A stretch of 64,000 bases of DNA from Oscillospiraceae bacterium (GTDB lineage Bacteria > Bacillota > Clostridia > Oscillospirales > Ruminococcaceae), in the NCBI GenBank assembly GCA_017541275.1, contig JAFXZM010000004.1:16832-80831 (forward strand). The letters run 5' to 3'. The translations under genes and the position numbers were made by a program. Numbering within the stretch: the first letter of the stretch is position 1; the number at the start of each line of letters is the position of its first letter. Of the stretch, positions 42,134 to 59,531 are shown piece after piece. Under the pieces are notes generated by a model. It did no database searches. It was not told the origin of the DNA and saw only the letters and a program-made list of their open reading frames with translations.

Positions 42134-43028
42134 CTTTCTCTTTCCTTCCCAAGCTGAAAAGGTCAAGCTCTGAGCAGAGCGTCCCGCCGACGATCAGGAG
42201 ACAGCCGCCGGCCTTGGGCAGCGTGATCGGTACGGAGTCTCCGAGAATTCCGGGAATCACGGCGGCAAGGATCACACCGAAAATGATCTGAAAGGAATAA
42301 ATGACGCTGCATGTCGCAGGTGAAGCATATTTCTGCGCAATCAGATTCATAAATGCCGCATACCCGCAGATCAGATATCCGTCCATAAAGACGCTGGAGA
42401 GCATCTCCTTTGAGTATTCAACAGCAAAGAAGGTTCTGGGCTGCAATACAAACCATATCACAAACGAGATTACCGCGACCATGACATCAATCAGCACGGA
42501 CAGAACAGCGACATCGCTCTCCTTGGCAAAATCGTTCATTTTAATCAGATAGAATGCACGTATCACGCAGACCAGCAGCATGATCGCAGGGCCCTTGATA
42601 TCCATGCTGCTGATACTGCTGAAGCCCGCAAGGAGAATACCCATCAGAATGACTGCCATGCCGGCGAGATTGCTTTTCGTCACCTTTCTGCCCATTACAA
42701 GCAGCATCAGCGGAATGACTGCCAGCGTGAAGGAAATAATGACGGAGCCTGACGCAGAATCCATGAACCGCATGGCGAGTATGATTAAGGTATTATAGCC
42801 GATGCTCATAACGGATAAAAACGCTGCATCAATCAGCTCACGCTTGTGAATTCCCTTCCGCAGCCGTTTGAAGAATGCTGTTCCGAGAAGCAGCGCACCG
42901 ATTCCGTAGGTCATTGTCAGAACCGCAAACGGCGATACGGTGGAAGGTATATTTTTCATCAGGATCATTTCTGATGCCCATAGTGCCGAAACACTAAGGA
43001 GTAAAATATAATACTGAATTTTATTCAA
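42126..43028 (-). CDS. DMT-superfamily (EamA-type) transporter
   Basis: 300 aa, ten hydrophobic segments arranged as two EamA halves. Confidence 0.8.
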   Translation of the reverse strand: MNKIQYYILLLSVSALWASEMILMKNIPSTVSPFAVLTMTYGIGALLLGTAFFKRLRKGIHKRELIDAAFLSVMSIGYNTLIILAMRFMDSASGSVIISFTLAVIPLMLLVMGRKVTKSNLAGMAVILMGILLAGFSSISSMDIKGPAIMLLVCVIRAFYLIKMNDFAKESDVAVLSVLIDVMVAVISFVIWFVLQPRTFFAVEYSKEMLSSVFMDGYLICGYAAFMNLIAQKYASPATCSVIYSFQIIFGVILAAVIPGILGDSVPITLPKAGGCLLIVGGTLCSELDLFSLGRKEKDA

Positions 43029-43343
43029 GCTTTTTCTTCCCCTGTCATATGAAATAAAGCATCTCCTGCCGGAACGGCCCGCGGCTTTCAGACAGTTGTG
43101 CAGCAGTCGGATGCTGTCCGCTGTTCAGATAATCCAAACAGTATATTTATATATGCCGTTTCCATAACGTAAATATTGTACGGCATGATATCTAAACTAT
43201 CTGTTTATTATACCATATTGATGAAAAAAAAGCAATGGAAGCGTCAGAAAAAATCACGGCAACGTGAGAGCCTCATTATCAATGCATCGCAGATACCGCA
43301 TAAAAAGTAAATGCTGCCGCCGTGGTATTCGCAGCAGAAAGGC

Positions 43344-43372
43344 TTGCAAATTATAGGGAATTGTGGTATAAT
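43344..43372 (+). promoter_or_regulatory. strong sigma-70-type promoter with extended -10, upstream of the helicase operon
   Basis: TTGCAA-17 nt-TATAAT, with TGG immediately 5' of the -10 (TGnTATAAT). Lies in an AT-rich 400-bp spacer. Confidence 0.6.
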
Positions 43373-43437
43373 GTATAGTATATATTTCCGATCGAGAAAA
43401 AATATGTACACAGTTACGCCCCGCGGCCCGAAAGGAT

Positions 43438-46431
43438 GTGAAAAGCGCCATGGTGTTTTCCACCATTGTATCTGACAGTCAGAATCGTTACAGGATTGAA
43501 CGTGATTTTCATGCGGAAGCATTCTCCGATTCAGATCAGGAATCGGTATCCGAACTGTGCGGGCGTATCTGGAGAAGCACACCGCTGCTTGGTGAGTTCA
43601 TCCTGAGCAGCAGGGAACAGGACAGGGTCCTGTCGTCTGCCGCAGTCATACTGAAACAGATGATATGCATGCCGGCTGCACATCAGAGCCCTGCCAATGA
43701 GCGTATTCTGGCAATGGCAATGGTTTTGCTGACACAGGCACAGGACAACGACGAAAACGACAGCAAATTATGGGATTATCTGCTGACACAGCTTGGCTAT
43801 GATGATGCCGCTGCGAAAAAATGCTCAAAGCAGACCCTTCGGAATAAAGTGACTGAAATTCTCGACCATGTTTTTCAATATGAGGGAAAGTTTTATTCGG
43901 AGGACGGCCACCGATATTTCAATACGCTGCGGCTCCATGCGCTCGCACCGACACAGAGTGTTGAGCATCTGTACAACCTGCTGTATGATTTTTATAAAAC
44001 GAATTTGGAGTGCCAGTATACGGAAGGCGACAACAGCTACCGGATTTTTGTGCGGCAGATCTGCAAGCGCTGGCAAAACAAATCCGCGGACGATCAAACA
44101 GAATCGGATATGAAAACCCGTTCCGATTATCTGGCGGCCAGCTTTCGGGAGCTGTTTACGCAGCGGCCGGAATATACCGCAGCGCTTTGTGATGCGCTTG
44201 TTTACCGGATGGATGTGATGCTCCGCGGAAGCACAGATATCTTTGCAGAGGAAAACCGCTGGGATCAGCTCATGCTCGGCTGGTACCGCAGAAAAGCGGA
44301 GACAGAGCGGCAGCGCATGAAGCAATCCTCCGCACAGGCCAGAATCTCGCGCATTGTGACCGATTCCGCCAAAATCGCCCCGGCCTATCATTATAAGGAC
44401 GAGCAGCTATCACTGTTTCTGCCGCGCATACGTCTGCCGGAAATCACAGAGCGTCCGACGGCAGTTCTGCTGCAGGGCGGGCGTGTGATTGACAGCATGC
44501 AGCTATCGGTGTTCGGCAATGACCTTTGCCTCACGACCCGCGAAATACAGATTATTCTTTCCGGCCGGGCGCACATCGACTGGGACAGCCCGATGGACTT
44601 CCGGATTCTGCTTCAGTGCGGCGGCAGGCTGCTCTATGATTCCGGGCAGCAGCTATACCGTTCTTATCTTTTGTTCCGGGTCGACGGTGAAGAAACCAGA
44701 CGCATTCCGCAGGTTTCCGCAGCCATGTATCTGGTGTACGGCTGGAATTCCGAAATGATGTATGATGAAACGGAGGACGTCAATTATACATACGGCTCCG
44801 ATTTTCAGGTGTTTGAATTTATCCCGTCATCACTGCGGCTGCTTTCCGTAAACGGAAAGAATCTGCTGCAGAAAAAGGGACAGGGAATGCAGTGCATGAT
44901 ATACGGCGACAGAGTTCCGGATGCCAGTGTGACCGGCTTCGGAGAAACCGCACTGCTTTTCAGAAGCAGCCCGTATTTGTATGTTTCTGCGGATTCCGCG
45001 GAGCAGATGAAGCAGTATGTATGCGACATCAACGGCACAGCGCTGCCGCTGTATCAGGCGGCAAACGCAAAGACCGATGCAAGGATTCCGCTGCCGGCGG
45101 CACAGAATCAGATTGGCAGGGTCGCTGTCCGCAGCTTTTATGACGGCAGAATCATTTTCGAGCAGTTATATTCTGTTCTTCCGGATTTCACACACCGGTT
45201 TGAACCGGCGTATTATTATTCCGGACAGCTTTTCGGAAAAGTGCATATTTCAGCCATGAACCGGCAGAATACGATCTCGTTTGAGCTGAGCCGCGATCAG
45301 CATTCGGTTACGGTTCCGCTGACACCCGATATCGGGCTGACGCTTTCTGCACCGTGGATTCAGGCAGAGCTGAACGGAGAGGATGCCTTTTCCTTGCCAG
45401 CATATATCTGGAAGGATTTTTTTCAGCAGCATCCGTTTTTGCAGATTACAGCACCGAAATGGCTGGAGATTCACCTGATGCTGGGCGGTACGGAGCTGCC
45501 CCGTCAGCAGAACGGCTACGACATCCGGAGCGCCGTCCGTGCCCTATGCAGCAATGCCGCAGGCACACCGAAGACCTGTCCGCTGGGAATCCTGCTCAAA
45601 AAAAGCGGCGCTGCGAAGCCGGATCAGATTCTGTTGTCCAACCTTGCCCTGCACCCGTTTTTAACTGAATCGCCGGTCATTTGCCGCGACAGAACAATCT
45701 ACTGGGAGCCAAGCGGAAAGTATATCGGCCCCGCCTGTGATACCATCCGGGTGCTTCTGGAAAATGATGAAGGAACAGAACCGTGGGTTTATGTATGCGA
45801 TCCGAAAAAGTCGTTCATCATTGAAAAGGCTTTTCCCTGCAAAGAGGGCAGCTACCGCTATGAAATCAGAGCCGAACAGGCAAATGCATTACAGGCGCAA
45901 GCCGAGCAGACATTGCTTCAGGGGGAAATCATCATCCGCGATCCGGAGGAGCTGCGCTATGAAGGCGCCGTGATTTACCTGACAGCCGCGAAATTTGAAA
46001 CAAATAGCTGGCTTTCGAGCTGGGAGGCAAAGATTCCATTTGGCTGTGCGAGACTGGTCGATATTCAGTATGAAACGATCTCGGTTCCGCTGGAAGGCAA
46101 ACTGAAGGATTATCAGGATCCGGTTCCCTGCTTCAGCGCATTTTTGCAATTCCGCATCGCAAGGGTGCAAAAATGGAACGATTTTAATTCCGACCCGGAT
46201 AACACGGAATATACGCTGATTAACCCTGTTCTGTTCTGGCAGGTCACATCGGAAAGCGGTTTGGATTATCTGATTTTGCAGGGCAGGGACGGCCGGCGAA
46301 TCATGATGGAGGAATTCCGAAGCGGCTGCGTCAGCGTTGTGAACCGCAGCAGCGCACAGATACCCGGCCGCCGGCGAAAACGGGCAGACCGTTTTGAATT
46401 TCAGGTCGAGGCGGATGCAGATGTTGAATAA
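43438..46431 (+). CDS. large uncharacterised protein, first gene of the candidate defence operon (DruH-like by size and context)
   Basis: 997-aa ORF (alternative ATG at 43450). I found no P-loop, nuclease, methylase or TM motif. The stop is 11 nt before the helicase gene. Confidence 0.6.
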   Translation: MKSAMVFSTIVSDSQNRYRIERDFHAEAFSDSDQESVSELCGRIWRSTPLLGEFILSSREQDRVLSSAAVILKQMICMPAAHQSPANERILAMAMVLLTQAQDNDENDSKLWDYLLTQLGYDDAAAKKCSKQTLRNKVTEILDHVFQYEGKFYSEDGHRYFNTLRLHALAPTQSVEHLYNLLYDFYKTNLECQYTEGDNSYRIFVRQICKRWQNKSADDQTESDMKTRSDYLAASFRELFTQRPEYTAALCDALVYRMDVMLRGSTDIFAEENRWDQLMLGWYRRKAETERQRMKQSSAQARISRIVTDSAKIAPAYHYKDEQLSLFLPRIRLPEITERPTAVLLQGGRVIDSMQLSVFGNDLCLTTREIQIILSGRAHIDWDSPMDFRILLQCGGRLLYDSGQQLYRSYLLFRVDGEETRRIPQVSAAMYLVYGWNSEMMYDETEDVNYTYGSDFQVFEFIPSSLRLLSVNGKNLLQKKGQGMQCMIYGDRVPDASVTGFGETALLFRSSPYLYVSADSAEQMKQYVCDINGTALPLYQAANAKTDARIPLPAAQNQIGRVAVRSFYDGRIIFEQLYSVLPDFTHRFEPAYYYSGQLFGKVHISAMNRQNTISFELSRDQHSVTVPLTPDIGLTLSAPWIQAELNGEDAFSLPAYIWKDFFQQHPFLQITAPKWLEIHLMLGGTELPRQQNGYDIRSAVRALCSNAAGTPKTCPLGILLKKSGAAKPDQILLSNLALHPFLTESPVICRDRTIYWEPSGKYIGPACDTIRVLLENDEGTEPWVYVCDPKKSFIIEKAFPCKEGSYRYEIRAEQANALQAQAEQTLLQGEIIIRDPEELRYEGAVIYLTAAKFETNSWLSSWEAKIPFGCARLVDIQYETISVPLEGKLKDYQDPVPCFSAFLQFRIARVQKWNDFNSDPDNTEYTLINPVLFWQVTSESGLDYLILQGRDGRRIMMEEFRSGCVSVVNRSSAQIPGRRRKRADRFEFQVEADADVE

Positions 46432-46442
46432 AGGAGGAATGT

Positions 46443-49400
46443 ATGGAACGGTTTGATCCCATTCAGGCATCAGAACAAATCAAGGAATGCTTTATAGATT
46501 ATATCACGACCTCCTTCCGTATGGCAGACGATACCTATGCAGAACTGCTGCGGGAGGAGCTGCGCAGGGAGGGCAGCATTGCCCGCGGCCCGTATCTGGA
46601 TGTCTCCGGCTCCTATAAAACCGGGGCGAGCCTGACGGAATTGATGAAAAGCGGAGAGGTCAGCCCGCTGTTTCAGGCACTTGAGCCGATCCCGGAGCAT
46701 GACCGGGAGCTGAAACTGCTGCGGCCGCTGTATCTGCATCAGGAGGCAGCATTAAAAAAGGCAAATGCGGGAAAGAATCTGGTCGTAACAACCGGAACCG
46801 GCTCCGGAAAAACAGAATGCTTTTTGATTCCGGTGCTGAATGCGCTGCTCCGGGAACGGGAACAGGGGCCGCTGACCGATGCGGTCCGGGCGATTATCAT
46901 TTATCCGATGAACGCGCTTGCCAATGACCAGATGAAACGGATGCGGAAGCTGCTGCAAAAGTATCCGGAAATCACATTCGGCATTTATAACGGAAATACC
47001 CGCCATACGGAGGCAGATGCCAGACGCGATTACAAAACGGCCAACGGAAAGGATGCCGAGCCGTACACCAACGAGCTGATCTCCCGCGAACGGATGCAGA
47101 AAACACCGCCGCATATTCTGATTACGAATTACTCGATGCTCGAATACATGATGCTCCGCCCGAAGGATGACAACGTGTTTTCCGGTGCAAAGCTGCGGTA
47201 TATTATTCTGGACGAGGCACATATTTACAAGGGGACGACCGGAATTGAAACCGCCATGCTGATGCGGCGTCTGCGTGCCCGGATCAGTACGCGGGATACG
47301 GTGCAGTTCATTCTGACCAGTGCAACCCTCGGCGGCCGGGACGCTGACATGGAGATCGTCCGCTTTGCAAAGACACTGTGTGAGGTTGATTTTGCGCCTT
47401 CTGACATTGTCCGTTCGGAGAGTGCATTGCCGCCGATGACCGGCATGGAGACTTACCCGCCGGAGCTGTTTGTGCAAATCGCGCACAGGGAGAAACCGGT
47501 CGCAGAGGTGCTGGCTGATTTTTCTGTTCCGGATTATGCACCGGACGGAGATGATGCCGAAAAATGCTATGCGCTTCTACTGCATTCCGCACAGTTTCAT
47601 GCGCTGATTCTGAATACGGCCGAGCCGGTCAGCATGAACAGGCTGTGTGCCGATATGCACGGAATGACGCCCTCACAGCTCAGGGATTTTATTTCCGTAT
47701 GCACATATGCGGAAAAAGATCATGTCAGTCTGATTAAGGCGCGGTATCATTTCTTTGTCCGCGCACTGGAGGGCGCGTATGTCACGCTGAATCATCCGCA
47801 AAAGCTGTTTTTGCAGCGCAGATCACTGCTCACAAATCCGGACGGCTCACAGCAGACCGCATTTGAAATCGCCGTCTGCCGCGACTGCGGACGCATGGCG
47901 CTGGTCGGCCGTGAGAGCGACGGCTTTCTGCATCAGGTTTCCAGAAAAAGCGAACGCGATCCGAATGCCTGCGAATATTATCTGATCGCAGATGATTCGT
48001 TTCAAACGATTGATGACGGCGCATCCGATCTCAGTGAAGATGAGGAAGCAGCCGGTGAAGATTTTTCCGTCTGTGCATGCTGCGGAAAGCTCGGCACAAA
48101 GGCGGATATCCGGTTCGGTGCATTCTGCGGCTGTGAAAAGCCGGAGTATGTCACGCTGAAAAGAGTCCTGAGAACGGAAAGCGGAGCTGCCAAATGTCCT
48201 GCCTGCGGGTTCGGTGCATTGAGAGCGTTTTATCTCGGCAGCGATGCGGCCACGGCTGTTCTGGGCACAGAGCTGTTTGAACAGCTCCCTGATACAGAGC
48301 TGCTTCCGCAGGAGAAAAAAGCCAAAGCGCCGGAGGGCGCGGGATTCGGCCTGTTCAAGCCCAAGGCGCTGCTCCCGAAAAAAATTACGAAGCCGCTGAC
48401 AAGACAGTTTTTGTGCTTTTCCGACAGCCGCAGCGAGGCAGCCTATTTTGCAAACTATATGGAGAAATCCTATCAGGAATTTCTGCGCCGCCGTGCGATT
48501 TTGCAGGTAGCAGATGCGCTGCGGGCGCAGGGACAGAGCGAGATCTCCGTGACCGCGTTTGTCAGCCGGCTGATACGGTTCTTTGATGAAAAGAAAACCT
48601 TTGAAATCTGGAGGCCGGACGGACATCAGGATTCGGATGCACTGCATATAGAAAGTGAACGGAATGCGTGGATCGCAGTCCTGAATGAAATGTTTAATGC
48701 AAGGCGCGGAACCAGTCTGACGGCACTGGGAAGACTGTCCTTTGAGTATCAGCCGAATCAGGAGTATATCTCAGGCGTTGCCGAAAAATACGGTCTTACG
48801 GAGCAGGAAAGCAAGGACCTTCTGAATCAGATTGCGATGTACGCTGTTTATACAGGCGCCGTCAATGCAGGCAGGCAGCTTGCGCTGAATGCAGCAGAGC
48901 GGGAATACATTTTCTTCTCTGAATATGAGAAAAAGCTCGTGCTTCAGAAAATGTCCGGCATGCCGAGCACCATCACCGGCTGGGCCGGGCGAAAGCGCAG
49001 CTCCGGCACCTATTATCCGAATTCCCGGATGCAGCGGCTCAGCAATACGCTGGGCATGACACCGGAGGAAGCGGATACCTTTCTGGAGCAGTACTGGAAC
49101 GGCGTCTTTCAGCCGGAGGGCGCGGAGTACATTTTATCCGCAGAGGATTTTCACATCCGTTTTCTCGGCAATCCGGAATTTCACTTTTTCCGGTGCAGAA
49201 AATGCGGGGGCGTTACGCCGTATAATGCCAGAAACCGCTGTGCCTCTGTTCGCTGCGACGGCACGCTCGAACCGATTGATCCGGATGCATATTTCCGAAA
49301 CAATCACTATCTGCGGCTGTATCAGAATCCGCAGATGAGCTCGCTTCAGATCAAGGAGCATACGGCGCAGCTTTCCAAGAATCACCAGACACGGTATCAG

Positions 49401-51641
49401 CAGGCATTTGTGGATAAGGATATCAATGCGCTGAGCTGCTCAACAACATTTGAAATGGGCGTGGACGTCGGCAGCCTCGAAACCGTGTATATGCGCAATA
49501 TTCCGCCAAGCCCGGCCAATTATGTGCAGAGAGCAGGACGCGCGGGCCGTTCCAGACAGTCTGCGGCGTATGTTCTGACCTATGCAAAGCTCTCGTCGCA
49601 TGATATGACCTTCTACGGGGCGCCGGAAACGATCATATCCGGCAGCATTCAGGCTCCGGTCTTTTCGATTCAGAATGAAAAGGTGGTCAACCGCCATATT
49701 TTCGCAGTCGCACTCAGCAAATTCTTTGCGTTGCATGAGGAAATCTATGACAGCGACAATCAGTCGGCGCTGCTGAATCATGGCGGATATGAGGTGCTGA
49801 AGGAATACCTTGCGGCAAAGCCGGAGGATCTCCGGCAGCTTTTGATGCTTTCGGTTCCGGAGGAGCTGCACAGTCTGCTCGGCATACCGGATTTTGGCTG
49901 GACGGAAAAGCTGGTCGGAAAAGACGGTGTTCTGGAGATTGCCGTGCAGGAATTCCGCGAGCAGATTGCAGTGCTGGAAAATGAGATCAAGCGGTGCGAT
50001 AAGCTGAAGGACAGAGAGGGCGCCGCAGCCGCAGAACGGTATCTGAAGGCGTTTCGCTGTGCAGAGGAAGACGGACGCCATAAAAAGCGGCTGATTGATT
50101 TTCTGGTGCGCAATAATGTGCTTCCCAAATACGGCTTCCCTGTTGATACCGTAGAATTGCAGCCCGCAAATGCATTCCGGCTGGAAAGCCGCGACACCCT
50201 GCAGCTTGCCCGCGATTTACAGCTTGCAATCGCAGAATATGCGCCCGGAGCCGAGGTAATTGCCGACGGAAAGATGTACACAAGCCGGTATATCCGGAAA
50301 ATGCCGGGAAAGGACAACTCGGCCGCATGGGAAAAAGGGTATTACTGTGAGTGTCCGTCGTGTCAGGAACCGAATTTCTCAAAGCGGTACGATACCAAGC
50401 TGAGCGGGGCAAAGTGCATCTCCTGTCTCAAGCTGATCGCACCGAAATCATGGAAGCCGACACTGGAACCGCGGCGCGGATTCTGGACAGACGGCAGCGA
50501 AAAGGATGTTCCGCTGCGAAAGCCGGAACGGGAGTATAAAACCGCGGATTATTATATCGGTGATATGGAGCGGCGGCGCCTGATGCGGACACGCTTCCTC
50601 GTAAATGATCTGGAAATTGAAATGGAATCCACCGCGAATGATTCGCTTGCCGTGGTCGGCCTGACGGATTACTATGTCTGCGAAAGCTGCGGATATGCTT
50701 CCGATACAGATTTTTCATCCGATCATAAGACGATGCGCGGATTCAAGTGCTCCAGCAAAAAGGAAACCCACAACCGCTACCGGTTATCCCATACCTTTAA
50801 GACCTTTGTGGCGAAAATTAAATTCTGCATTCCGGCCGCACAGGACGAGCAGACGATGCTTTCCGTCATGTACGCACTGCTGGAAGGGCTTTCCAGAGAG
50901 CTGTCCATCGAGCGAACCGATCTGAAGGGCTGTCTGCACAGAGAACCGCTTGAGGGCTGTCAGCGTCCTGTGTTTGCGGTCATTCTGTACGATGCAGTTG
51001 CAGGCGGCGCGGGTCATGTCCGCCGCATGGTCACAGAGGATGCCGCAGTATTCCGGCGGGTTCTGAAGCGTGCAATCGCCGTAGCGGAAGGATGCAGCTG
51101 CGATCCGTCCTGCTATCAATGCCTGCGGAATTACTACAATTCGCAGATACACGATCTGCTTGACCGGCGGCTTGCAGCGGATTTTCTGAAGCAGTGGGTC
51201 GGAGAATACGTACCGAAAGCAGCCGCGTCTGTGCAGACGGCAGATGCAGATGAAATACAGGCTGCATCGGGAGCGGAAGCCGTTTCGCCCTGCAAAATCC
51301 GGTTTAAGAATAACGGCCGGAATTTGCGCAATGTCCCGGCTCAGCAGGTCTGGGATACCGTACTGGGCGACTGCGCCGAAGAAGACATCGGCATCGTGCA
51401 GCAGCTCCGCGAAATGCATCACGGAGCCGGCGGGAACCCGTATTATCAGGCGTATTTCGTTTTCCCGGAAGTATCAGACCGGAAATGCAATGCCGCACTG
51501 ATCTGGGAGAAGCAAAAGGTAATTTTCTTTGTGAGTGACCAGTTCGAGGATTATGAATATGCGCTGAAAAGCGGCTGGCACTGCTTCTGCACCGCAGATA
51601 ATCCCGATCTGCATCAGATGATTCAAATAATAGGAGGATAA
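46443..51641 (+). CDS. DEAH-box SF2 helicase with multiple zinc ribbons and a DUF1998-type C-terminal domain (DruE-like)
   Basis: AAGGAGG RBS. Motif I TGTGSGKT (aa 117-124), Ia YPMNALANDQ, II DEAH (aa 257-260), III TSAT, VI QRAGRAGR. CxxC clusters at aa ~477-586 and later. DUF1998-like EGCSCDPSCYQCLRNYYN. Confidence 0.75.
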   Translation: MERFDPIQASEQIKECFIDYITTSFRMADDTYAELLREELRREGSIARGPYLDVSGSYKTGASLTELMKSGEVSPLFQALEPIPEHDRELKLLRPLYLHQEAALKKANAGKNLVVTTGTGSGKTECFLIPVLNALLREREQGPLTDAVRAIIIYPMNALANDQMKRMRKLLQKYPEITFGIYNGNTRHTEADARRDYKTANGKDAEPYTNELISRERMQKTPPHILITNYSMLEYMMLRPKDDNVFSGAKLRYIILDEAHIYKGTTGIETAMLMRRLRARISTRDTVQFILTSATLGGRDADMEIVRFAKTLCEVDFAPSDIVRSESALPPMTGMETYPPELFVQIAHREKPVAEVLADFSVPDYAPDGDDAEKCYALLLHSAQFHALILNTAEPVSMNRLCADMHGMTPSQLRDFISVCTYAEKDHVSLIKARYHFFVRALEGAYVTLNHPQKLFLQRRSLLTNPDGSQQTAFEIAVCRDCGRMALVGRESDGFLHQVSRKSERDPNACEYYLIADDSFQTIDDGASDLSEDEEAAGEDFSVCACCGKLGTKADIRFGAFCGCEKPEYVTLKRVLRTESGAAKCPACGFGALRAFYLGSDAATAVLGTELFEQLPDTELLPQEKKAKAPEGAGFGLFKPKALLPKKITKPLTRQFLCFSDSRSEAAYFANYMEKSYQEFLRRRAILQVADALRAQGQSEISVTAFVSRLIRFFDEKKTFEIWRPDGHQDSDALHIESERNAWIAVLNEMFNARRGTSLTALGRLSFEYQPNQEYISGVAEKYGLTEQESKDLLNQIAMYAVYTGAVNAGRQLALNAAEREYIFFSEYEKKLVLQKMSGMPSTITGWAGRKRSSGTYYPNSRMQRLSNTLGMTPEEADTFLEQYWNGVFQPEGAEYILSAEDFHIRFLGNPEFHFFRCRKCGGVTPYNARNRCASVRCDGTLEPIDPDAYFRNNHYLRLYQNPQMSSLQIKEHTAQLSKNHQTRYQQAFVDKDINALSCSTTFEMGVDVGSLETVYMRNIPPSPANYVQRAGRAGRSRQSAAYVLTYAKLSSHDMTFYGAPETIISGSIQAPVFSIQNEKVVNRHIFAVALSKFFALHEEIYDSDNQSALLNHGGYEVLKEYLAAKPEDLRQLLMLSVPEELHSLLGIPDFGWTEKLVGKDGVLEIAVQEFREQIAVLENEIKRCDKLKDREGAAAAERYLKAFRCAEEDGRHKKRLIDFLVRNNVLPKYGFPVDTVELQPANAFRLESRDTLQLARDLQLAIAEYAPGAEVIADGKMYTSRYIRKMPGKDNSAAWEKGYYCECPSCQEPNFSKRYDTKLSGAKCISCLKLIAPKSWKPTLEPRRGFWTDGSEKDVPLRKPEREYKTADYYIGDMERRRLMRTRFLVNDLEIEMESTANDSLAVVGLTDYYVCESCGYASDTDFSSDHKTMRGFKCSSKKETHNRYRLSHTFKTFVAKIKFCIPAAQDEQTMLSVMYALLEGLSRELSIERTDLKGCLHREPLEGCQRPVFAVILYDAVAGGAGHVRRMVTEDAAVFRRVLKRAIAVAEGCSCDPSCYQCLRNYYNSQIHDLLDRRLAADFLKQWVGEYVPKAAASVQTADADEIQAASGAEAVSPCKIRFKNNGRNLRNVPAQQVWDTVLGDCAEEDIGIVQQLREMHHGAGGNPYYQAYFVFPEVSDRKCNAALIWEKQKVIFFVSDQFEDYEYALKSGWHCFCTADNPDLHQMIQIIGG

Positions 51642-51645
51642 AAAT

Positions 51646-53379
51646 ATGGCAGTGATGTGTCCGGAAACTCCGCGGGAGTTTCACCCTGCAAGTCTGGAGG
51701 GAATGATGTTTCAGGCGCTTTCTGCGCTGCCGGACAGCTATTATGTATTTCATTCGTTCACAGTTATTCATACAGATGATGAAGGTCTCTCCGAGTGTGA
51801 GGTCGATTTCGTGATCTTTCATCCGGAAAAGGGCGTGCTGTGTATTGAGGCAAAGGCCGGCAATGTGCAGTATCAGAACGGAGAGTGGCTTTACGGAGAC
51901 GGAACCCCGATGCGGCACGGAGGGCCGTTCCGGCAGGCCAGCACCAACATGCATAATCTCATGGATTATATTGACGATTGCGGCTATGATTACATCCGGA
52001 AAAAATGCAAGTTCATGTTTGCCGTCTGGTTCCCCTCCGTGACGGAGGAGCAGTTCCGGAATGTCGTGCTGCCTGCGGATGCAGACCGCAGTCTGATTCT
52101 GTTCCGTGATTCCATCGAACAGATCAGCGACGAGATTGCGCGGATCTTTTCGATTCCGCTCCGGCAGCATAACGTACAGACAATGCTCGGCGCACGCGAT
52201 AAAACGCTGTTGCTGGAACGCATCTTTGCACCGCGGTTCGAGATCATTTCGATCACGACCATGGAACACACGCATAAAAAGCTGGTGTTCAAAACACTTC
52301 TGAAGGAACAGACTGCATTGCTCAACTATCTGGAGGAGCAGAACTGTGCCGTGATTAACGGTATGGCAGGAACCGGAAAAACACTGATTGCACTGGAAAA
52401 AGCAAGGCGGCATGCTGCAAAAGGTGAATCTGTGCTGTTCCTTTGCTATAACAAAAAGCTGAAGGAGCATCTTCGCACCTGCTATCCCCACGACTTCATC
52501 GAATACCATACGATCGACGGACTGGCCTGCAAGCTGTGCAATACGCCGTCTGCGGATTATCAGCTCTTTCAGGAAAAACTGGAGGACTACTATCTCGACG
52601 GCGGCTTCCCGTATCAGCATGTGATAATAGATGAAGGACAGGATTTCGGTCAGGAAAAGCTGGATGAGATTACGATTGTGGAATTGCTGCAAAGCATCAT
52701 CACGGAGCATGAGGAAGCAAACGGCACATTTTATGTGTTTTATGACAAAAACCAGCTTGTACAGGGCTCCCGGATTCCCGCCTGCATCGCAAATGCGGAG
52801 TGCCGTCTGACCCTCTACAGAAATTGCCGGAATACGGAAAATATCGCGATTGCTTCTATGCGGCTGCTCGGCTCAGAACGTCAGCCAAAGCTGTTCGCGG
52901 ATGCTGTGATCGGAGATACGCCCCTGTTGTTTATGGAGGAAGCGGCAAAGAAACAGGCAGCAGCGGTTCAGCAGTGTATCCGGCAGTTCGAGCAGTCCGG
53001 CTGCGAAAGCATTGTAATTCTGACGGTAAAAACCGAGGAAACCGGTTTGCTGCATGCGGACGCCGCACAGGGCATGTATTTATATCAGGGCAGGAAATAT
53101 CTGTATACAACCTGCCGGAAATTCAAAGGACTGGAAGCTGACGCAGTCATCCTGACCGATATTGAAGGAAATATGGACGCGGATGAGATCCGGAAGCTGA
53201 TTTATGTCGGTGCATCCAGAGCGAGGTTCCATCTGGCTCTGATTACCGGCCTGCGCGAAGCAGATTGCTGCGGTTTGCTTGACCGCATGGAGCTGAAGCA
53301 TACGAGACAGCCGAAAAAAGCGCTGGCGACAGCATTCAATGCAAAGCTCGCAGCGATTCAGGATGCTGTAACAGTGTGA
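51646..53379 (+). CDS. NERD-domain nuclease fused to an SF1 (UvrD-like) helicase
   Basis: AGGAGG RBS, 4 nt after the upstream stop. NERD core ECEVDFVIFHPEKGVLCIEAK. Walker A GMAGTGKT. IIDEGQDF. C-terminal KGLEADAVIL and YVGASRAR. Confidence 0.75.
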   Translation: MAVMCPETPREFHPASLEGMMFQALSALPDSYYVFHSFTVIHTDDEGLSECEVDFVIFHPEKGVLCIEAKAGNVQYQNGEWLYGDGTPMRHGGPFRQASTNMHNLMDYIDDCGYDYIRKKCKFMFAVWFPSVTEEQFRNVVLPADADRSLILFRDSIEQISDEIARIFSIPLRQHNVQTMLGARDKTLLLERIFAPRFEIISITTMEHTHKKLVFKTLLKEQTALLNYLEEQNCAVINGMAGTGKTLIALEKARRHAAKGESVLFLCYNKKLKEHLRTCYPHDFIEYHTIDGLACKLCNTPSADYQLFQEKLEDYYLDGGFPYQHVIIDEGQDFGQEKLDEITIVELLQSIITEHEEANGTFYVFYDKNQLVQGSRIPACIANAECRLTLYRNCRNTENIAIASMRLLGSERQPKLFADAVIGDTPLLFMEEAAKKQAAAVQQCIRQFEQSGCESIVILTVKTEETGLLHADAAQGMYLYQGRKYLYTTCRKFKGLEADAVILTDIEGNMDADEIRKLIYVGASRARFHLALITGLREADCCGLLDRMELKHTRQPKKALATAFNAKLAAIQDAVTV

Positions 53380-53407
53380 TTTTCGTTTTTCATATGCAAA
53401 AAACATT

Positions 53408-53438
53408 TGCGGGCCGGAGATATCATCTCCGGCCCGCA
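53408..53438. terminator. perfect 13-bp hairpin between convergent operons
   Basis: TGCGGGCCGGAGA-TATCA-TCTCCGGCCCGCA. The T run (AAATGTTTTTTGC) is on the minus-strand side. Confidence 0.7.
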
Positions 53439-53524: not shown

Positions 53525-56500
53525 CTAAGGCTTCTCCAGCAGCTTCAGAATCCGGCTCACATCCAGAACAGTCAGCATATCGTCCTGATCCATGTCAGCG
53601 GCTTTCAGGCCGGTATCGGAAATCGCAGCATCCTCGTCCTCCGCAATGTATTTGCAAAGCAGCTCGGCGTCCTCGGCAGAGACCGCTCCGTCCTGATTGA
53701 CGTCGCCGTACAAAATGCTGTCACCGGCTTTCTCAAAGATAAACCAATCCACATTCATGACATATTCCCCGTCGCCCTTGAACAGCAGACAGAGATCGTG
53801 TACGCCTTCTGTCGGTGTAATCTCGGTTTCAAACTGCTGATAATTCATCCAGTCGCCGGTCGGCGGACAGGTGATGCTGCCGATCAGCGTTCCATCATAC
53901 GGATCGTCCAGACGCAGCTCGACCGTGCCCTCATCCATGCCGGACGCCGCCATCCGGAATTTCGCCGCACCGCCGCCGAAATCGACGTTAAAATAGATTG
54001 CAAAATCGTACTGATTGATGTACCCGAGACAGGTAATCTCATCGGACTGCTGCACGGGCTCCATAATGTCCATCAGATCGGCGCTTTCCGCCTGAATGGT
54101 TTTGAATGCATTGCGGTTCTTCAGCGGATCAGGCACGGTTGTGGTCGTTTCGGTTGTTGTCTCAGTCGTGACGCTTGTTGTGATTTTCGGAATTTCGGAA
54201 ATCGCGACAAACGGGATACCGTTTTTCTTGGCATATTCCTGCGCATAGGAGCCTGCAATGCCCTTGATCGTCAGCTTTGCGTCATTTTCAAACGCATTAT
54301 CGGAAATGTAAGTGACGCTCTCAGGGATAATGACCTCACGCAGGTATTCACAGTTTGCGAATGCCCGATTGCTGATGTATTCCACGCCCTCTTCCAGCGT
54401 GACATAACAAAGACTGGTGCATTGATTGAAAGCCTGAACCGCAATAGCTTTTACGCTGCCCGGAATCGTGACTGCGGGAAATCCGCATCCCTGAAACGCG
54501 CAATCGTCAATGAATGTCAAGCTGTCCGGAAAATGCGGCTCATTGATACGGGAGCGCTCAAACGCATCTTTCCCGATATATGTTAAAGTATTCGGCATGA
54601 CTACATTATAGGGTCCCCAGTTTTGCGAATCATATGAGAACGCAGCATTGCCGATTTCCGTGACCCCCTCCGGAATCACAACTGTACCCTCGCAGCGTCT
54701 TCCGTCAATCACCACATTGTTTTCAATCACGAGCAGGATTTCGGGATTCTGCGCCTTATCCCACGCTGTTCCGGCGAATGCATTTTCTCCGATTTCCGTC
54801 AAACTGTCCGGGAGATTGATAACCGCAAGTTTTTCACATCCGTAAAACGCCTCCGCACCGATGCTGATTACACTGTCCGGAATGGTAATCTCGGTTATGC
54901 TTAAGTCACCGGAAAATGCATTATCGCCGATGATTTTTACGCCGTCCGGAATGGTGATTTCAGGCGTCCATTCCAGTCCGTTCGCCGCAGATCCGGCGAT
55001 ATTGACAACACCGTCCGGAATGACAAGCGGTTCCGTGGAGAATCTGCCGTTCGGTGTCTCGAATAAAACATGATTTTCAATCACATACGGATTTTCCGAA
55101 CTTTTTGCATCCTCCCATGGTGTTATTCCAAATGGACCGCTGCCGAATTTTGTCATGCTGTTCTCGATCGTGACAGAAGTGAGACTTGGGCACTGGCCAA
55201 ATGCAAAATCGCCGACGAACTCTACGGTTTTCGGAATCGTGATCGCGGTCAGCGCTCTGCAATAGGAAAATGCACCGGCGCCGATGATTTTCACATTTTT
55301 CGGAATGGTCACGCCTTCCAGCTTCAGGCATTCTGAAAAGGCATGGTCGCCGATTTCCGTCAGGCTGTCCGGAAGCGGAGCAGAGGTCAGACCGTTGCAT
55401 TTATAAAACGCCTCCTCGCCGATATACTCCACGCCCTCCTCAATGGCGGCGGTTTTCATGGCGTAGCATCCGCTGAACGCCTTTTTCCCGATGCTTTTCA
55501 CGGTGCCGGGAATTGTGAGCTTTTCCATGTGACAATCGCTGAACAGACCCTCCGGAATGCTTGTCATGCTTTTCGGAATCGTCACGCCGTCCCAGAGCAT
55601 ACAGTCTGCAAACGCATATTCGCCGATTTCAACCGCGCTTTCCGGGATTGTAACTCGGTTCAGGTTTTGGCAGTGATTGAATGCATTTGCGCCAATCTTC
55701 GTTACACTGTCCGGAATTGAAACGCTGTTCAGCTTTGTGCACCACAGGAATGCATTTTTACCGATCTCTGTCACGCCGTCCGGAATGGTAACGGAGGTCA
55801 GCTTGTCCTGCCGTGCAAACGCATTGATGCCGATTACGGTCACGCCGTCCGGAATGACAACATCGCCTTCACATTTGCCGGCGTCGATCAGAACATGGTT
55901 CACAATCACCATGCCCCCGTCCGTCTGCTGTGCAGCAAGCCACGGCGTTTCCCTGAACGCATCCTTATCAATGCCGGCTGCACTCCCCAGAATCGTGACA
56001 TCGGTCAGGTTCTCGCAGTACACAAAAGCTCTCTCGCTGATACTTGTCACGCTTTTCGGAATTGTAACGGAAGTGAGGCTTGTACAGCGTTGAAATGCCT
56101 CCCAGCCGATGCTTGTCACGCTCTCCGGAATTGTCACGGAGGTGAGGCTGCTGCAGGATGCAAACATACATTGTCCAATGCTTGTCACACTGTTCGGAAT
56201 CGTTACAGAAGCAAGATTATCGCAGTCACTAAATGCATAATCACCGATGTTTGTCACATTGTCCGGAATCGTCACGGACGCAAGGCTTTTGCATTGTCTG
56301 AACGCATACTCCCCGAAACTTGTCACACTGCTTGGAATTGTAACAGAGGCAAGGTTTTCACATCCAAAGAACGTGTAGTCTGCGATGCTTGTCACGCCCT
56401 CCGGAATTTTGATTTCGGTCAGGCTTTTGCAACCGAAAAAAGCCGCCGCCCCAATGCTCGTTACACTGTCCGGAATATTGATTTCGGCCAGATTTGTACA

Positions 56501-56884
56501 GTTGTAAAACGCATACGCGCCGATGCTTGTCACGGTATCCGGGAGCGTGACGGAGATAATATTGCTTTGGATTTCTCCGCCGTCGTTCTTGAAGAGATTA
56601 TCGGCAATGGAGGTTACACCCTCCGAAACAACGACCCTTTTGATGTTTTCATTCCACGAAAACGGGCTGGAATAATGAATATCAAAATTTCTCATCGGTC
56701 CTGTGCCGGTGATTGTCAGCGTGCCCTCATCGTCCAGCGTCCAGCGGTGATCCGGCCCCAGAAGCCCCTGCTCCGCCGCATTGGCGGTCAGCACGGCCTC
56801 CGGCAGCAGTTCCGGCGCCAGCGGCACGCTCACGAGGCACATGCCCGCGGCCGTCAGCAGGGAGAGCAGCTTTTTCAGTTTCAT
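53525..56884 (-). CDS. secreted BspA-type leucine-rich-repeat protein with CBM6-like module and C-terminal dockerin
   Basis: AGGAGG RBS. Signal peptide. More than 25 repeats of (V/I)TIPxSVTSIGxxAFxxCxxL. CBM6-like block (TIQAES...TGDWMNYQ...NVDWFIF). Dockerin loops GDVNQDGAVSAED and DMDQDDMLTVLD. Confidence 0.85.
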   Translation of the reverse strand: MKLKKLLSLLTAAGMCLVSVPLAPELLPEAVLTANAAEQGLLGPDHRWTLDDEGTLTITGTGPMRNFDIHYSSPFSWNENIKRVVVSEGVTSIADNLFKNDGGEIQSNIISVTLPDTVTSIGAYAFYNCTNLAEINIPDSVTSIGAAAFFGCKSLTEIKIPEGVTSIADYTFFGCENLASVTIPSSVTSFGEYAFRQCKSLASVTIPDNVTNIGDYAFSDCDNLASVTIPNSVTSIGQCMFASCSSLTSVTIPESVTSIGWEAFQRCTSLTSVTIPKSVTSISERAFVYCENLTDVTILGSAAGIDKDAFRETPWLAAQQTDGGMVIVNHVLIDAGKCEGDVVIPDGVTVIGINAFARQDKLTSVTIPDGVTEIGKNAFLWCTKLNSVSIPDSVTKIGANAFNHCQNLNRVTIPESAVEIGEYAFADCMLWDGVTIPKSMTSIPEGLFSDCHMEKLTIPGTVKSIGKKAFSGCYAMKTAAIEEGVEYIGEEAFYKCNGLTSAPLPDSLTEIGDHAFSECLKLEGVTIPKNVKIIGAGAFSYCRALTAITIPKTVEFVGDFAFGQCPSLTSVTIENSMTKFGSGPFGITPWEDAKSSENPYVIENHVLFETPNGRFSTEPLVIPDGVVNIAGSAANGLEWTPEITIPDGVKIIGDNAFSGDLSITEITIPDSVISIGAEAFYGCEKLAVINLPDSLTEIGENAFAGTAWDKAQNPEILLVIENNVVIDGRRCEGTVVIPEGVTEIGNAAFSYDSQNWGPYNVVMPNTLTYIGKDAFERSRINEPHFPDSLTFIDDCAFQGCGFPAVTIPGSVKAIAVQAFNQCTSLCYVTLEEGVEYISNRAFANCEYLREVIIPESVTYISDNAFENDAKLTIKGIAGSYAQEYAKKNGIPFVAISEIPKITTSVTTETTTETTTTVPDPLKNRNAFKTIQAESADLMDIMEPVQQSDEITCLGYINQYDFAIYFNVDFGGGAAKFRMAASGMDEGTVELRLDDPYDGTLIGSITCPPTGDWMNYQQFETEITPTEGVHDLCLLFKGDGEYVMNVDWFIFEKAGDSILYGDVNQDGAVSAEDAELLCKYIAEDEDAAISDTGLKAADMDQDDMLTVLDVSRILKLLEKP

Positions 56885-57013: not shown

Positions 57014-57051
57014 CAAAAAAGCACCGCCTGATGCAGCAGTCAGGCGGTGCT
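57014..57051 (-). terminator. rho-independent terminator after the CotH gene
   Basis: Minus strand: AGCACCGCCTGA-8 nt-TCAGGCGGTGCT followed by TTTTTT. Confidence 0.75.
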
Positions 57052-57058
57052 TGTTGTA

Positions 57059-59476
57059 TTATTCGGTTTGAACGACCGGAAGCGGATAGGATTTGCCGGC
57101 AAGCTCGGCGGTATAGCAGAGCATGATATGCAGCGCGTCGGCGGCATTGAGGAGGCCGTTTTTATCGACATCGCCGTTCCGGAACTGTGTGCTGTTCACC
57201 TGAGCGGGAAGCCCCGCGAGCTGTCTGACATGGAACTGAAGCAAAAGCTGTGCATCTCTTGCATCGACATGCATGCTCTCATCGAAATCGCCGGAAAACT
57301 CCGTCCGCGGGACGCCGTTGAGGCTTTCGACGGCAGCATCATAGGCCTCCTGCGCGGCATCGGGCGAGCCTGCCGCCAGAATAGCGGCCTGTCCGTCCTC
57401 AACCAGCGCATCGAGAGCGCGGCGGCCTTCGGGGTCATAGCGGGCCGGATCGACATATTTCAGCTCCTCCGGAAGCTCCCGTGCGAGCTTTTCGGTCAAG
57501 GCGCTGAGCCATTCCTTCCGCAGAAAATCCCGCCGGAGCGCAGCGCGGTTCCGGAAAAATTCAACGATCTCGGCATAGGTCTCGCCGTTATAGGGACCCA
57601 TGACCTTATAGGGCTTCGGGCCGTACATATGCCAGCGGGCATTGTTCATTTCCGCCGAAGCGGCAAGGTATTCACCGAGCTGCGTGATGCCCGCACCGCC
57701 CTCCTGCGACTGATCGGTGAGTGCGCGGAGCTGCTCATCGAAGCGCTCGTAGTAAAGCTCAGAAACGCGCTTGACAAACGCATCGTCATGCGTATAGAGC
57801 TGCTGAATCCAGCCGATGCCGGAAGCAGTTTTGTCGCTATCGGTCTCCTTATTGAAGCCGCTCATGGGGAAATACGCGGCAAACATTTCATTGGCGCGGC
57901 CGCTGTATACGGTTTTCTGCTGATTCGGGTCACCGGAAACGCCGGAGGTGATGCCGATGCTGAAATTATAGAAGGAGAGGTCAAAATCCCACGCAGGGCC
58001 GTAATGCAGCTTGCCGTCGCCCTTGCTGTCGGAGTCTTTATACAGGAAAAAGCTGGTGTAGGTCGCATCGACATTCTGTGAAATTTCCTGAAGCAGATAG
58101 CCGAGGATCAGCGAATCCACATCAATATAGTCGCTGTAATGCTTGCCTTTGGAGTTGCGGCCGTTTGGGGAATAGATTGCGTCCTCCATATCCTGCACAA
58201 AGCTGCGGATATATTCGACCTGCGCCTTGGAGGCATATTCCGGGCTGTCGATCTGTATGGCCTGACCGCGGGAGGTAACGAAACCGCTTTCGGCCTTGCC
58301 GGCATAGCGGTTATAGAGCTGAAACTGAAGCAGATAGCCGCCGGTGATATCGGAGGGATTGTTCGGGATATTCCAGTATTTATAGGTATTGCGCTGAAAT
58401 TCCTTTGTACCGTCCTGTCCGTAGCTGTCAAGCGATTTGGCATTGAGTCCCTCGGTCAGCTCCTCAAGGTCGGTAATATTGACGCGCTGCTTCTGCACCT
58501 GCGCCTTTTCGCTGAGCTGATAGGTGCCGCGGTACTGGCCGTCGGCGTACAGATCGGCGAAGGTGCAGTCCATGGTATATTCGATGCCGGCTTTCCGGCC
58601 CATTTCCGTTGTAACAACATTGCGCAGCATGGACTGATCGAGATAATTGCTCAGCAGCACCCATTTTTTCGCCTTGCCCAGCCCGAAAAGATCGGCCTTT
58701 GCGGGCAGCTTGAAATTATAGGATTTCTTTTTGCTGTAATCCCATGAAGAATTGCCGTGCCGCCACAGCTTTTCGATCTCGCCGCTGTAGCTGACCGCAC
58801 CGGTTTGAGTCAGCATCAGGGATTGGGCGGTTTCGGTGCCGCCCCAGTGCTGCTTATCAAGGAAATCCGTGCCGCCGTGGCCGGTTGCCAGATAGATGAC
58901 CTTCAGATCGGATTGCAGCACATGCAGCGTGCCGCAGTCGGTATCGCCGACCGTTACGGCAAATTCGTCTGCCGCGGCGAACAGATCGGTCGCCTTGCCG
59001 GAGCTCACCGGCGCATCATTGAGCATCAGCGTTTCGCCGGAGCTTGTTTTGCAGGAAACGGTCAGATTATTCCGGTCGGCCGTAGCGGGCAGAAACAGAT
59101 ACCGCGAATCGTCATACGGGCTGTACCAGACATCCACATAATCCAGATCGGTCTTGACCTGCGGGCTGATATTGCTGACGCGGAACTGCGTGACGGGGAT
59201 ATTCTCATATTTCCGGTTTGCCGGCTTGATGGTACCGTCCGTGCCGTAAAAGGCCTTCGGGTCATCGTCATTGTATTCGCTTGTGACGCTTTTCGCGCCG
59301 TCCTCTTTGCGGATATCGCTTTCGCTGCTTTGCCCGACGGAGGCGGCGCTGCCGGTCACGGAAAGCGGCAGTGCATCCAGTATGCCGGTATACGCACCGA
59401 GCAGCAGCGAGCAGGCGAACAGCGCCGCAAAGGCTCTGCGTCTTCTGCCGGAGCGAATGCTTTTCCTATTGTTCAT
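57059..59476 (-). CDS. CotH-family protein with C-terminal dockerin
   Basis: ATG (MNNRKSIRSG...) after GAGGGTG. Signal peptide. CotH-like core (KKSYNFKL, KWVLLSNYLDQSMLRN, YADGQYRGTYQLSEK). Dockerin loops GDFDESMHVDARD and GDVDKNGLLNAAD. Confidence 0.8.
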   Translation of the reverse strand: MNNRKSIRSGRRRRAFAALFACSLLLGAYTGILDALPLSVTGSAASVGQSSESDIRKEDGAKSVTSEYNDDDPKAFYGTDGTIKPANRKYENIPVTQFRVSNISPQVKTDLDYVDVWYSPYDDSRYLFLPATADRNNLTVSCKTSSGETLMLNDAPVSSGKATDLFAAADEFAVTVGDTDCGTLHVLQSDLKVIYLATGHGGTDFLDKQHWGGTETAQSLMLTQTGAVSYSGEIEKLWRHGNSSWDYSKKKSYNFKLPAKADLFGLGKAKKWVLLSNYLDQSMLRNVVTTEMGRKAGIEYTMDCTFADLYADGQYRGTYQLSEKAQVQKQRVNITDLEELTEGLNAKSLDSYGQDGTKEFQRNTYKYWNIPNNPSDITGGYLLQFQLYNRYAGKAESGFVTSRGQAIQIDSPEYASKAQVEYIRSFVQDMEDAIYSPNGRNSKGKHYSDYIDVDSLILGYLLQEISQNVDATYTSFFLYKDSDSKGDGKLHYGPAWDFDLSFYNFSIGITSGVSGDPNQQKTVYSGRANEMFAAYFPMSGFNKETDSDKTASGIGWIQQLYTHDDAFVKRVSELYYERFDEQLRALTDQSQEGGAGITQLGEYLAASAEMNNARWHMYGPKPYKVMGPYNGETYAEIVEFFRNRAALRRDFLRKEWLSALTEKLARELPEELKYVDPARYDPEGRRALDALVEDGQAAILAAGSPDAAQEAYDAAVESLNGVPRTEFSGDFDESMHVDARDAQLLLQFHVRQLAGLPAQVNSTQFRNGDVDKNGLLNAADALHIMLCYTAELAGKSYPLPVVQTE

Positions 59477-59531
59477 AGTTATCACCCTCAAGAATAACAT
59501 CCGGAGCGGTTCTCCGTGCGCGGGGGGAGGC

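Follow-up and report, generated by a model that had tools for sequence, protein, structure and literature searches.

How could a compact DruE helicase that carries no nuclease of its own bring about the destruction of phage DNA? This question is raised by a three-gene operon in a 64,000-nucleotide stretch of an Oscillospiraceae bacterium genome (GenBank assembly GCA_017541275.1, contig JAFXZM010000004.1, forward-strand positions 16,832 to 80,831), here called the window. The operon encodes a large protein without recognisable domains (gene 1), a DruE-like helicase (gene 2), and a NERD nuclease-helicase (gene 3). An earlier note on this DNA had proposed that the first two genes fit the DruH/DruE pair of type III Druantia and had placed the third outside any Druantia definition; indeed, no published definition includes a NERD domain with an SF1 helicase. 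The answer favoured here, and judged rather probable, is that the operon encodes a Druantia-III-like sensor/helicase pair whose DruE C-terminal tail would recruit the NERD-SF1 nuclease-helicase as an effector acting in trans. The module formed by the tail and the NERD-helicase is undescribed, while the DruE core and the Druantia and DISARM systems that host the module are known.

Gene 2 (46443-51641, plus strand) is an open reading frame (ORF) of 1732 residues. In PADLOC it matches DruE1 (3.4e-177) and DruE3 (1e-164), in line with the DruE-like assignment made earlier. Pfam recognises DEAD and Helicase_C domains followed by an MZB (MrfA Zn-binding, DUF1998) module, which spans positions 50868-51125 of the plus strand (residues 1476-1561, PF09369, 4.5e-11) and includes a cysteine cluster (1551/1553/1557/1560). 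The helicase core displays the GSGKT (120-124, with K123), DEAH (257), SAT (293), and QRAGRAGR (1029) motifs. The nearest PDB chains are those of DruE (9tu7_Y, 4e-80, and 9wae, 4e-46, both structures from 2026) and of YprA (6znp, 5e-21), and the DrmA models give weak matches only (1e-16). No match to a PLD, Vsr or other nuclease domain is found in gene 2. From its sequence, the protein is assigned as a DruE, that is a YprA-family SF2 DEAH helicase, in a compact and nuclease-less form, and the locus carries the signature of Druantia (DruE profile match, DEAH core, and MZB). Since its scores on the type I and type III DruE models are about equal, and lower on type IV, it is placed in a DruE clade for which PADLOC holds no model.

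Gene 3 (51646-53379, plus strand) is an ORF of 577 residues. PADLOC matches it to RTasNERD-Hel (2e-55) and NERD+UvrD (2e-14), with weak similarity to AbiO and Nhi. Pfam detects UvrD_C_2 (4.7e-10), and the NERD family PF08378 is recorded on orthologues. Its motifs comprise GTGKT (242-246, with K245), DEGQD (329-333), VGASR (521-525), and the NERD signature D54...E68-A-K70. Every motif that had been pointed out beforehand in genes 2 and 3 is present. The NERD residues E52, D54, E68, and K70 are invariant in alignments of 23 and 38 gene-3 family members, as are the Walker A, DEGQD, and VGASR motifs in the family. This is a large family of over 3,200 clusters (E<1e-10), hundreds of them at ~50% identity. 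The AlphaFold2 (AF2) model (predicted local distance difference test, pLDDT, 80) matches human SLFN11 and SLFN14 over its full length in Foldseek (E 4e-15 to 7e-13). The next ranks are occupied by IGHMBP2, nsp13, RecD2, Upf1, Dna2, Sen1, and RecD, mostly SF1B/Upf1-like 5'->3' enzymes, with UvrD lower. A profile search of the PDB sequences agrees weakly with this fold ranking, and a plain sequence search of the PDB brought no helpful match. The earlier reading of gene 3 as a NERD domain with an SF1 helicase is upheld by PADLOC, Pfam, and the motifs, and the protein is best described as a putative NERD (PD-(D/E)xK) nuclease in one chain with an SF1 helicase, the latter being of the Schlafen/DUF2075, SF1B-like type. 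The model suggests that its polarity is probably 5'->3'.

What ties gene 3 to DruE is the tail domain that ends gene 2 (51234-51638, plus strand; about residues 1598-1732). When the C-terminal overhangs are aligned, this tail of ~120 residues is homologous on the window DruE, on III-like DruEs, on type I DruE, and on DrmB, the type I DruE and DrmB overrunning their PADLOC models by about 130-150 residues. Its consensus reads G.D...IW..L..D...E.P...A.LIW...KV...GW. Pfam gave nothing credible for the tail at E<=10, so that a Vsr/DUF559-like identity, also considered, is unsupported. Counted after the CxxC motif of MZB, 140-180 residues follow where a NERD-helicase is present (50 rows; 166 in the window DruE), versus 25-39 in III-like loci where it is absent (9 rows), and 407 in the E. 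coli III-A DruE, which has PLD domains (1 row). The tail and gene 3 are present or absent together, with no exception among the rows measured, and the two-gene relatives lack the tail. The two- and three-gene forms are interleaved in the DruE tree: the DruEs of a three-gene (L027) and a two-gene (L011) locus are 64% identical, and the window DruE is 55% identical to that of the two-gene locus L006 and 51-55% to those of the three-gene loci L010 and L013, the gene 3 of which is only 32-33% identical to that of the window. Over 34 complete III-like loci, the partial correlation of tail with gene 3, given the core, is 0.69, versus 0.29 for tail with core, given gene 3.

These data point to the tail as a candidate docking adaptor that would recruit gene 3. 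Inhibitory tethering would fit the co-occurrence and co-variation as well as recruitment does. The tail and gene 3 could then form a guard or back-up layer, in which the nuclease is kept inactive on the tail and is freed when a phage inhibitor hits DruE or DrmAB, as a second-line and possibly abortive response; modular use across unrelated MZB hosts would suit such a generic guard of MZB helicases. With no antitoxin-like gene and no sign of toxicity control, and being purely inferential, a guard function is considered improbable.

The association of the tail with gene 3 can be followed outside the window. A metagenome scan yielded 80 loci with gene-3 relatives at 37-51% identity. A DruE/DrmB-like ORF ends at the start of gene 3 in 71 of them; among the remaining loci, the operon is present in four but falls below the BLAST cut-off, the upstream DNA is missing in another four, and one is without the operon. 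Gene-3 relatives directly follow an MZB-helicase gene in 75 of the 76 assessable loci, many of which are close relatives, so these counts are not independent events. The individually sampled homologues of gene 3, which include the complete genome of Erysipelothrix larvae and three IMG/VR contigs, all stand directly after a gene for a ~1700-residue DruE-like protein and one for a domainless protein of ~900-1070 residues. The trio is kept from 79% down to ~30% identity of gene 1, and genes 2 and 3 of the relatives are spaced by 4 nucleotides or overlap.

The tail and gene 3 are found on three host systems, namely III-like pairs, type I Druantia, and class 2 DISARM, the DISARM and type I hosts having been verified with PADLOC on one representative each. 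The type I representative reaches 1873 bits on DruE1. The DISARM representative matches DrmMII (1.9e-40), DrmE, DrmA (2e-214), and DrmB (1e-83), and its C5 methyltransferase has generic type II methyltransferase models as best PADLOC matches. In the DISARM hosts, the NERD-helicase gene directly follows drmB, and the gene-3 homologues are ~48-50% identical. Because the pair is also carried by type I DruE and by DISARM DrmB, it is viewed as a portable accessory module and not as part of a one-off three-gene Druantia.

The loci L056 and L058, together with ~35 similar ones among L045-L100, make up a large human-gut class 2 DISARM clade with the order DrmMII-DrmE-DrmA-DrmB-NERD-helicase. Two of the DISARM-type loci extend far enough on either side for a Pfam scan of the flanks, which found no PLD/DrmC gene downstream of the NERD-helicase; the neighbouring genes encode a serine recombinase, a relaxase, and a polymerase of the Y family. 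By its gene content, this clade looks like a DrmC-less DISARM variant residing on mobile elements.

Such a distribution can also be explained if gene 3 acts on its own, as a single-gene defence of the Nhi or Schlafen kind, appended at the 3' end for co-regulation or co-mobilisation and uncoupled from DruE. Gene 3 sits behind three host systems, each of them complete in its absence, two-gene versions exist, and the gene-3 tree is incongruent with that of DruE. Furthermore, AbiO and Nhi, to which PADLOC finds its weak similarity, are single-gene defences, and independent defences embedded in DISARM and BREX have been documented (10.1101/2024.01.29.577857). The HEC-02 NERD protein of this "embedded defences" paper is unrelated, its partner being an ABC ATPase. 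An uncoupled gene 3 is nevertheless deemed unlikely in view of the near-constant position after an MZB-helicase gene in the assessable loci, of the complete lack of stand-alone copies in the sample (0), of a host tail always found with gene 3 and never without it, of the co-variation of tail and gene 3, and of their tight or overlapping junction.

Gene 1 encodes the partner that would stand in the place of DruH. Its ORF is open from a GTG at 43438 (997 residues), and the gene is set at 43450-46431 (plus strand), yielding 993 residues from the ATG at 43450. The shorter product is the likelier one, as homologues begin at the equivalent of this ATG. In the public gene call (P0001, 920 residues), the start lies ~77 codons downstream of the homologue-supported one (43438-43680). 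Because this start is too late compared with the homologues, the N-terminus of the gene-1 family is regarded as prone to mis-annotation.

The protein was said at the outset to have no recognisable motif, and Pfam, NCBIfam, and PADLOC return no match for it; a sequence search of the PDB gave nothing useful. Its relatives amount to 25 clusters in a word-based search and to 582 representative clusters in an exhaustive hidden Markov model search. They occur in 10 of 185,579 species genomes, all ten Clostridia, and the closest ones come from metagenome-assembled genomes (MAGs) of Oscillospiraceae. Structurally, the AF2 model (pLDDT 84) displays a helical domain (residues 1-300) followed by an all-beta array of immunoglobulin (Ig)-like domains (310-990), with no C-terminal helical domain. 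DruH is built of an N-terminal helical domain, six Ig-like domains, plus a helical domain at the C-terminus (10.64898/2026.05.13.724313; 10.64898/2026.05.12.722862). In its model, gene 1 resembles DruH in the helical N-domain and the Ig-like array and lacks the C-terminal helical domain. Foldseek returns generic arrays of Ig and fibronectin type III (FN3) domains (SbsC, contactins, complement C3, and phage tail proteins), the copy of the PDB used predating DruH 9tud, which could therefore not appear among the structural matches. Against BFVD, only generic Ig/FN3 tail proteins are retrieved.

At the profile level, gene 1 has no match at E<0.01 to the at least 11 DruH3 models of PADLOC. The E. 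coli DruH (L012), used as a positive control, scores 2544 bits on DruH3, versus nothing for gene 1 and its relatives. Similarly, PF27205 and PF27201 are found in 43/44 and 42/44 of the DruH relatives, respectively, versus no Pfam family in gene-1 relatives. Comparison by hhalign of the 39-member gene-1 superfamily with a 26-member DruH alignment gives a probability of 3%, which is not significant. Domain by domain, the N-versus-N and beta-versus-beta comparisons both give P values of ~0.01, while the cross-domain controls range from 0.13 to 0.53, a sub-threshold but suggestive signal. The earlier proposal that genes 1 and 2 correspond to DruH and DruE thus holds for size and gene order but is not supported for the domain content of gene 1, which misses every DruH profile; the general layout of its model is similar except for the C-terminal domain.

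Gene 1 diverges much faster than its two partners: in loci L001, L002, and L003, its identity to the window is 79, 52, and 36%, versus 90, 76, and 69% for DruE and 89, 70, and 66% for gene 3. DruH likewise diverges fast, and this has been interpreted as pointing to a function in sensing (PMC13192584). The upstream proteins of the more distant loci are joined to gene 1 only transitively, via a C. butyricum protein, and all of these gene-1-like proteins are grouped, from sequence comparisons, in one fast-evolving superfamily. Gene 1 is best considered an analogue of DruH and not a member of its family, a remote homology being possible.

Some members of this superfamily have further modules. The gene-1-like proteins P0263 and P0280 are natural fusions to a UvrD-type helicase. 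Three others of 1500-1800 residues (P0159, P0286, and P0269) carry N-terminal DNA-binding modules of the RNA polymerase alpha-CTD type (helix-hairpin-helix, HhH), and one of them additionally matches sigma-70 region 4.

The surroundings of the trio vary from one genome to another. They include a Mob relaxase, a Wadjet remnant with an integrase, ATP synthase and leucine-rich repeat (LRR) genes, and IMG/VR contigs, and the co-occurrence check proposed in the earlier note is answered positively, the trio being co-conserved in other genomes within varied neighbourhoods. Together with the homology to validated systems and the patchy distribution, these mobile neighbourhoods are contextual evidence for a predicted anti-phage role. 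Could the operon instead serve housekeeping DNA repair, as a helicase and nuclease of the MrfA/YprA type? The YprA family includes MrfA/MrfB, the YprA structure 6znp is among the PDB matches of gene 2, and the flanks in the window are ordinary chromosomal genes. Housekeeping is nonetheless held to be most improbable, as gene 2 matches the DruE models (590 bits) far better than repair-type YprA, the gene-1 family is patchy and gene 1 evolves fast, and relatives lie beside Wadjet and restriction-modification genes, relaxases, and integrases, some of them on contigs of IMG/VR.

Several of the relatives deserve individual description. The trio of L003 and of L004 has just upstream of it (L003:1750-6588) the pieces of a Wadjet system (JetA, JetB, a split JetC, and JetD) and a fragment of a phage-type integrase; in this Oscillospiraceae MAG, the Wadjet remnant gives the trio a defence-island-like setting. 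L030 (L030:1-15956, a Logan contig of SRR8397886) displays an operon variant beside an HpaII restriction-modification and Vsr cassette. It comprises a gene-1-like/UvrD fusion (1617 residues) that precedes a split MZB helicase, with a 1063-residue P-loop protein and a 622-residue MZB protein, neither of which has BLAST similarity to the window DruE, and a 575-residue NERD-helicase that is 25% identical to gene 3. In the two-gene relatives L021 (8590-12490), L017 (4702-6042), and L016 (8556-9713), the gene-1-like and DruE matches are separated by gaps of 1.2-3.9 kb, which could be an inserted element or an extra gene. In L036 (4901-9996), the DruE frame is broken: a 1076-residue C-terminal ORF abuts the NERD-helicase, and a 1.9-kb gap follows the gene-1-like ORF, so that a pseudogene or an assembly frameshift is possible.

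Among the closest known systems is Druantia type III-B, a two-gene system of a compact, nuclease-less DruE and DruH (PMC12458937; 10.64898/2026.05.13.724758). As in type III-B, a compact DruE devoid of PLD domains is immediately preceded by the gene of a large domainless protein, with translational coupling between the two, and this partner diverges faster. The window locus differs by its third gene, by the DruE tail, and by gene 1, which matches no DruH profile and lacks the C-terminal helical domain; type III is otherwise marked by a DruH (YjiT/STY4851 family) recognisable by profile. With type III-A of E. coli and P. aeruginosa (PDB 9tu7, 9tud) it shares the DruE core, the gene order, and the proposed sensor and helicase logic. 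There, however, DruE is ~2100 residues long and carries two PLD-like domains, while in the window the nuclease belongs to a separate helicase protein. Types I and II have DruA-D or DruM/F/G beside DruE, none of which accompanies the window DruE, nor does a methylase.

Other systems resemble the operon in part. Class 2 DISARM (DrmE-DrmA-DrmB-DrmC-DrmMII) is also organised around an MZB/DUF1998 helicase, and here too the MZB gene is immediately followed by that of a nuclease. In the window, by contrast, DruE is unsplit, DrmE is missing, the nuclease is a NERD-helicase instead of a PLD protein, and no PLD or methyltransferase gene is found at 40-57 kb. ARMADA type II, with its YprA-like ArmC and the RelE-UvrD/GajB-like helicase ArmD, associates a YprA helicase with a second fusion of an SF1 helicase and an effector (PMC12458937), but the window has neither an SNF2 helicase (BrxHII) nor a PglX methyltransferase, and its effector is NERD, not RelE, on a Schlafen-like, not GajB-like, SF1 helicase. 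TALON pairs a YprA-like helicase with a NERD nuclease (PMC12458937), together with TPR-CSD or TBP genes that the window lacks. Membership in DISARM, ARMADA, or TALON is ruled out, their defining genes being absent. RecBCD/AddAB and Dna2 also join a PD-(D/E)xK nuclease to an SF1 motor, with a second motor on the other strand in the former (RecB 3'->5', RecD 5'->3'). There is no membership at the sequence level, the partner here is an SF2 MZB helicase, and they are regarded as putative functional analogues. A literature search that did not cover all journals found no paper on the tail, nor one connecting a NERD-helicase with DruE or DrmB.

How might the three proteins work together? DruE has been reported to unwind DNA 3'->5' from junctions of single-stranded DNA (ssDNA) and duplex, and a PLD domain fused to DruE provides the nuclease output of type III-A, DruH acting upstream as sensor and/or exonuclease (10.64898/2026.05.13.724758; 10.64898/2026.05.13.724313; PMC13192584; 10.64898/2026.05.12.722862). 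Gene 1 most likely acts upstream, as a sensor or processor of infection or of DNA ends, which its fast evolution would suit. Gene 2 would be the 3'->5' SF2 motor, loading where ssDNA meets duplex in phage DNA that is invading or being replicated, and its tail would dock gene 3. The resulting assembly may resemble RecBCD/AddAB or Dna2, two motors moving on opposite strands while the NERD site degrades the unwound DNA. Gene 3 would so supply in trans the effector role that falls to the PLD domains in III-A or to DrmC in DISARM. The natural fusions of gene-1-like proteins with UvrD, and the NERD-helicase standing in the DrmC slot where no PLD gene is found, are counted as support. A wider version of this proposal, put forward tentatively and with less confidence than recruitment in the operon itself, is that the tail and the NERD-SF1B protein form a portable effector cassette for any MZB helicase C-terminus, which would make of a single 3'->5' SF2 motor a bipolar helicase-nuclease resembling RecBCD.

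Several observations weigh against this model. The two-gene relatives, without tail and gene 3, are presumably functional, and Druantia I and DISARM are complete without the module; because these do without it, gene 3 may be an accessory and not the main effector. The PLD domains have been reported to be dispensable in one III-A study, so the system may lack nothing that a nuclease in trans would have to supply. Since the DNA of the tail adjoins that of gene 3, co-transfer by recombination could yield co-variation without protein contact. Many of the metagenome loci are, moreover, closely related, so that their counts are not independent. The polarity of gene 3 relies solely on a fold ranking in which UvrD matches too. 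As for gene 1, its homology to DruH is sub-threshold in profile comparison, and it lacks the C-terminal domain to which one group maps the ssDNA/ATP site of DruH. Finally, no integrase or other mark of a mobile element, and no other defence gene, is seen among the window ORFs scanned.

The three same-strand ORFs lie as first described, with 11 nucleotides between genes 1 and 2 and 4 between genes 2 and 3 (ORF scan), and an AGGAGG ribosome-binding site precedes both gene 2 and gene 3, in agreement with the strong sites announced for them. A sigma-70-type promoter-like site (43344-43372, plus strand; TTGCAA-17-TGnTATAAT) lies within the 410-nucleotide intergenic spacer upstream of gene 1, where the GC content drops to 0.446 (43001-44000) from ~0.53-0.60 elsewhere. 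With 10/12 consensus matches plus the TG, it is the top-scoring site of the region, as the claim of a promoter with extended -10 in an AT-rich spacer would have it, although promoter-like matches are common (16 observed versus 10.5 +/- 2.9 in shuffles). Downstream, a hairpin (53408-53438, no strand set) lies between the convergent gene 3 and LRR/dockerin gene. It is real, with 14 pairs (10 G-C) and not the 13 counted before; the scan scores it as a terminator of the minus strand, on which the T-run follows. Owing to its location between convergent genes, it probably serves both, and it is likely a bidirectional terminator.

The neighbours of the operon in the window are ordinary chromosomal genes of a Clostridia-type Firmicute. 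They encode EamA and QueT-like transporters, a Cache-HAMP-SpoIIE phosphatase, an aminotransferase, an LRR_5/CBM6/dockerin protein, a CotH-dockerin protein, penicillin-binding proteins, FtsW/RodA, and elongation factor P. The genes upstream of the operon, among them the transporters and the SpoIIE phosphatase, lie on the opposite strand, and the downstream gene is that of the LRR/dockerin protein. No tRNA was found at the locus, no Rfam match occurs anywhere in the window, and the 10.6-kb locus has no megablast match in E. coli genomes or PLSDB plasmids. Four loci that are otherwise unlike one another, that of Erysipelothrix larvae among them, have BspA-type LRR_5 proteins next to the trio: window 53525-56884 (minus strand), L002:956-4897, L003:19525-19962, and L114:12387-18164, with dockerin in the window and in L002. 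This may be chance, the genomes being rich in LRR genes, or mark a neighbourhood in which insertion recurs. Further downstream (57059-59653, minus strand), the real gene is that of an 863-residue CotH-kinase/dockerin protein, and the overlapping plus-strand ORFs (57047-58081, 58139-58747, and 58757-59497) have no Pfam matches and are probably spurious.

To our knowledge, it was not until 2025-2026 that the mechanisms of Druantia and DISARM were resolved, and this for proteobacterial forms with PLD nucleases only. The locus offers a testable answer to how a compact, nuclease-less DruE (III-B and relatives) and a DrmC-less DISARM act, and direct experiments are feasible because cultured carriers exist (Erysipelothrix larvae, CP013213.1, within 1,476,398-1,498,122, and Muriventricola aceti H5_61). 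Current annotation tools would report only an orphan DruE here, so that this class is being missed. If the wider cassette proposal holds true, it would be a general and so far unrecognised way for nuclease-less variants of Druantia and DISARM to destroy phage DNA, and it would mean that the two exchange effector modules. Human-gut Firmicutes carry the module in abundance, and it is common to systems that are now classified apart.

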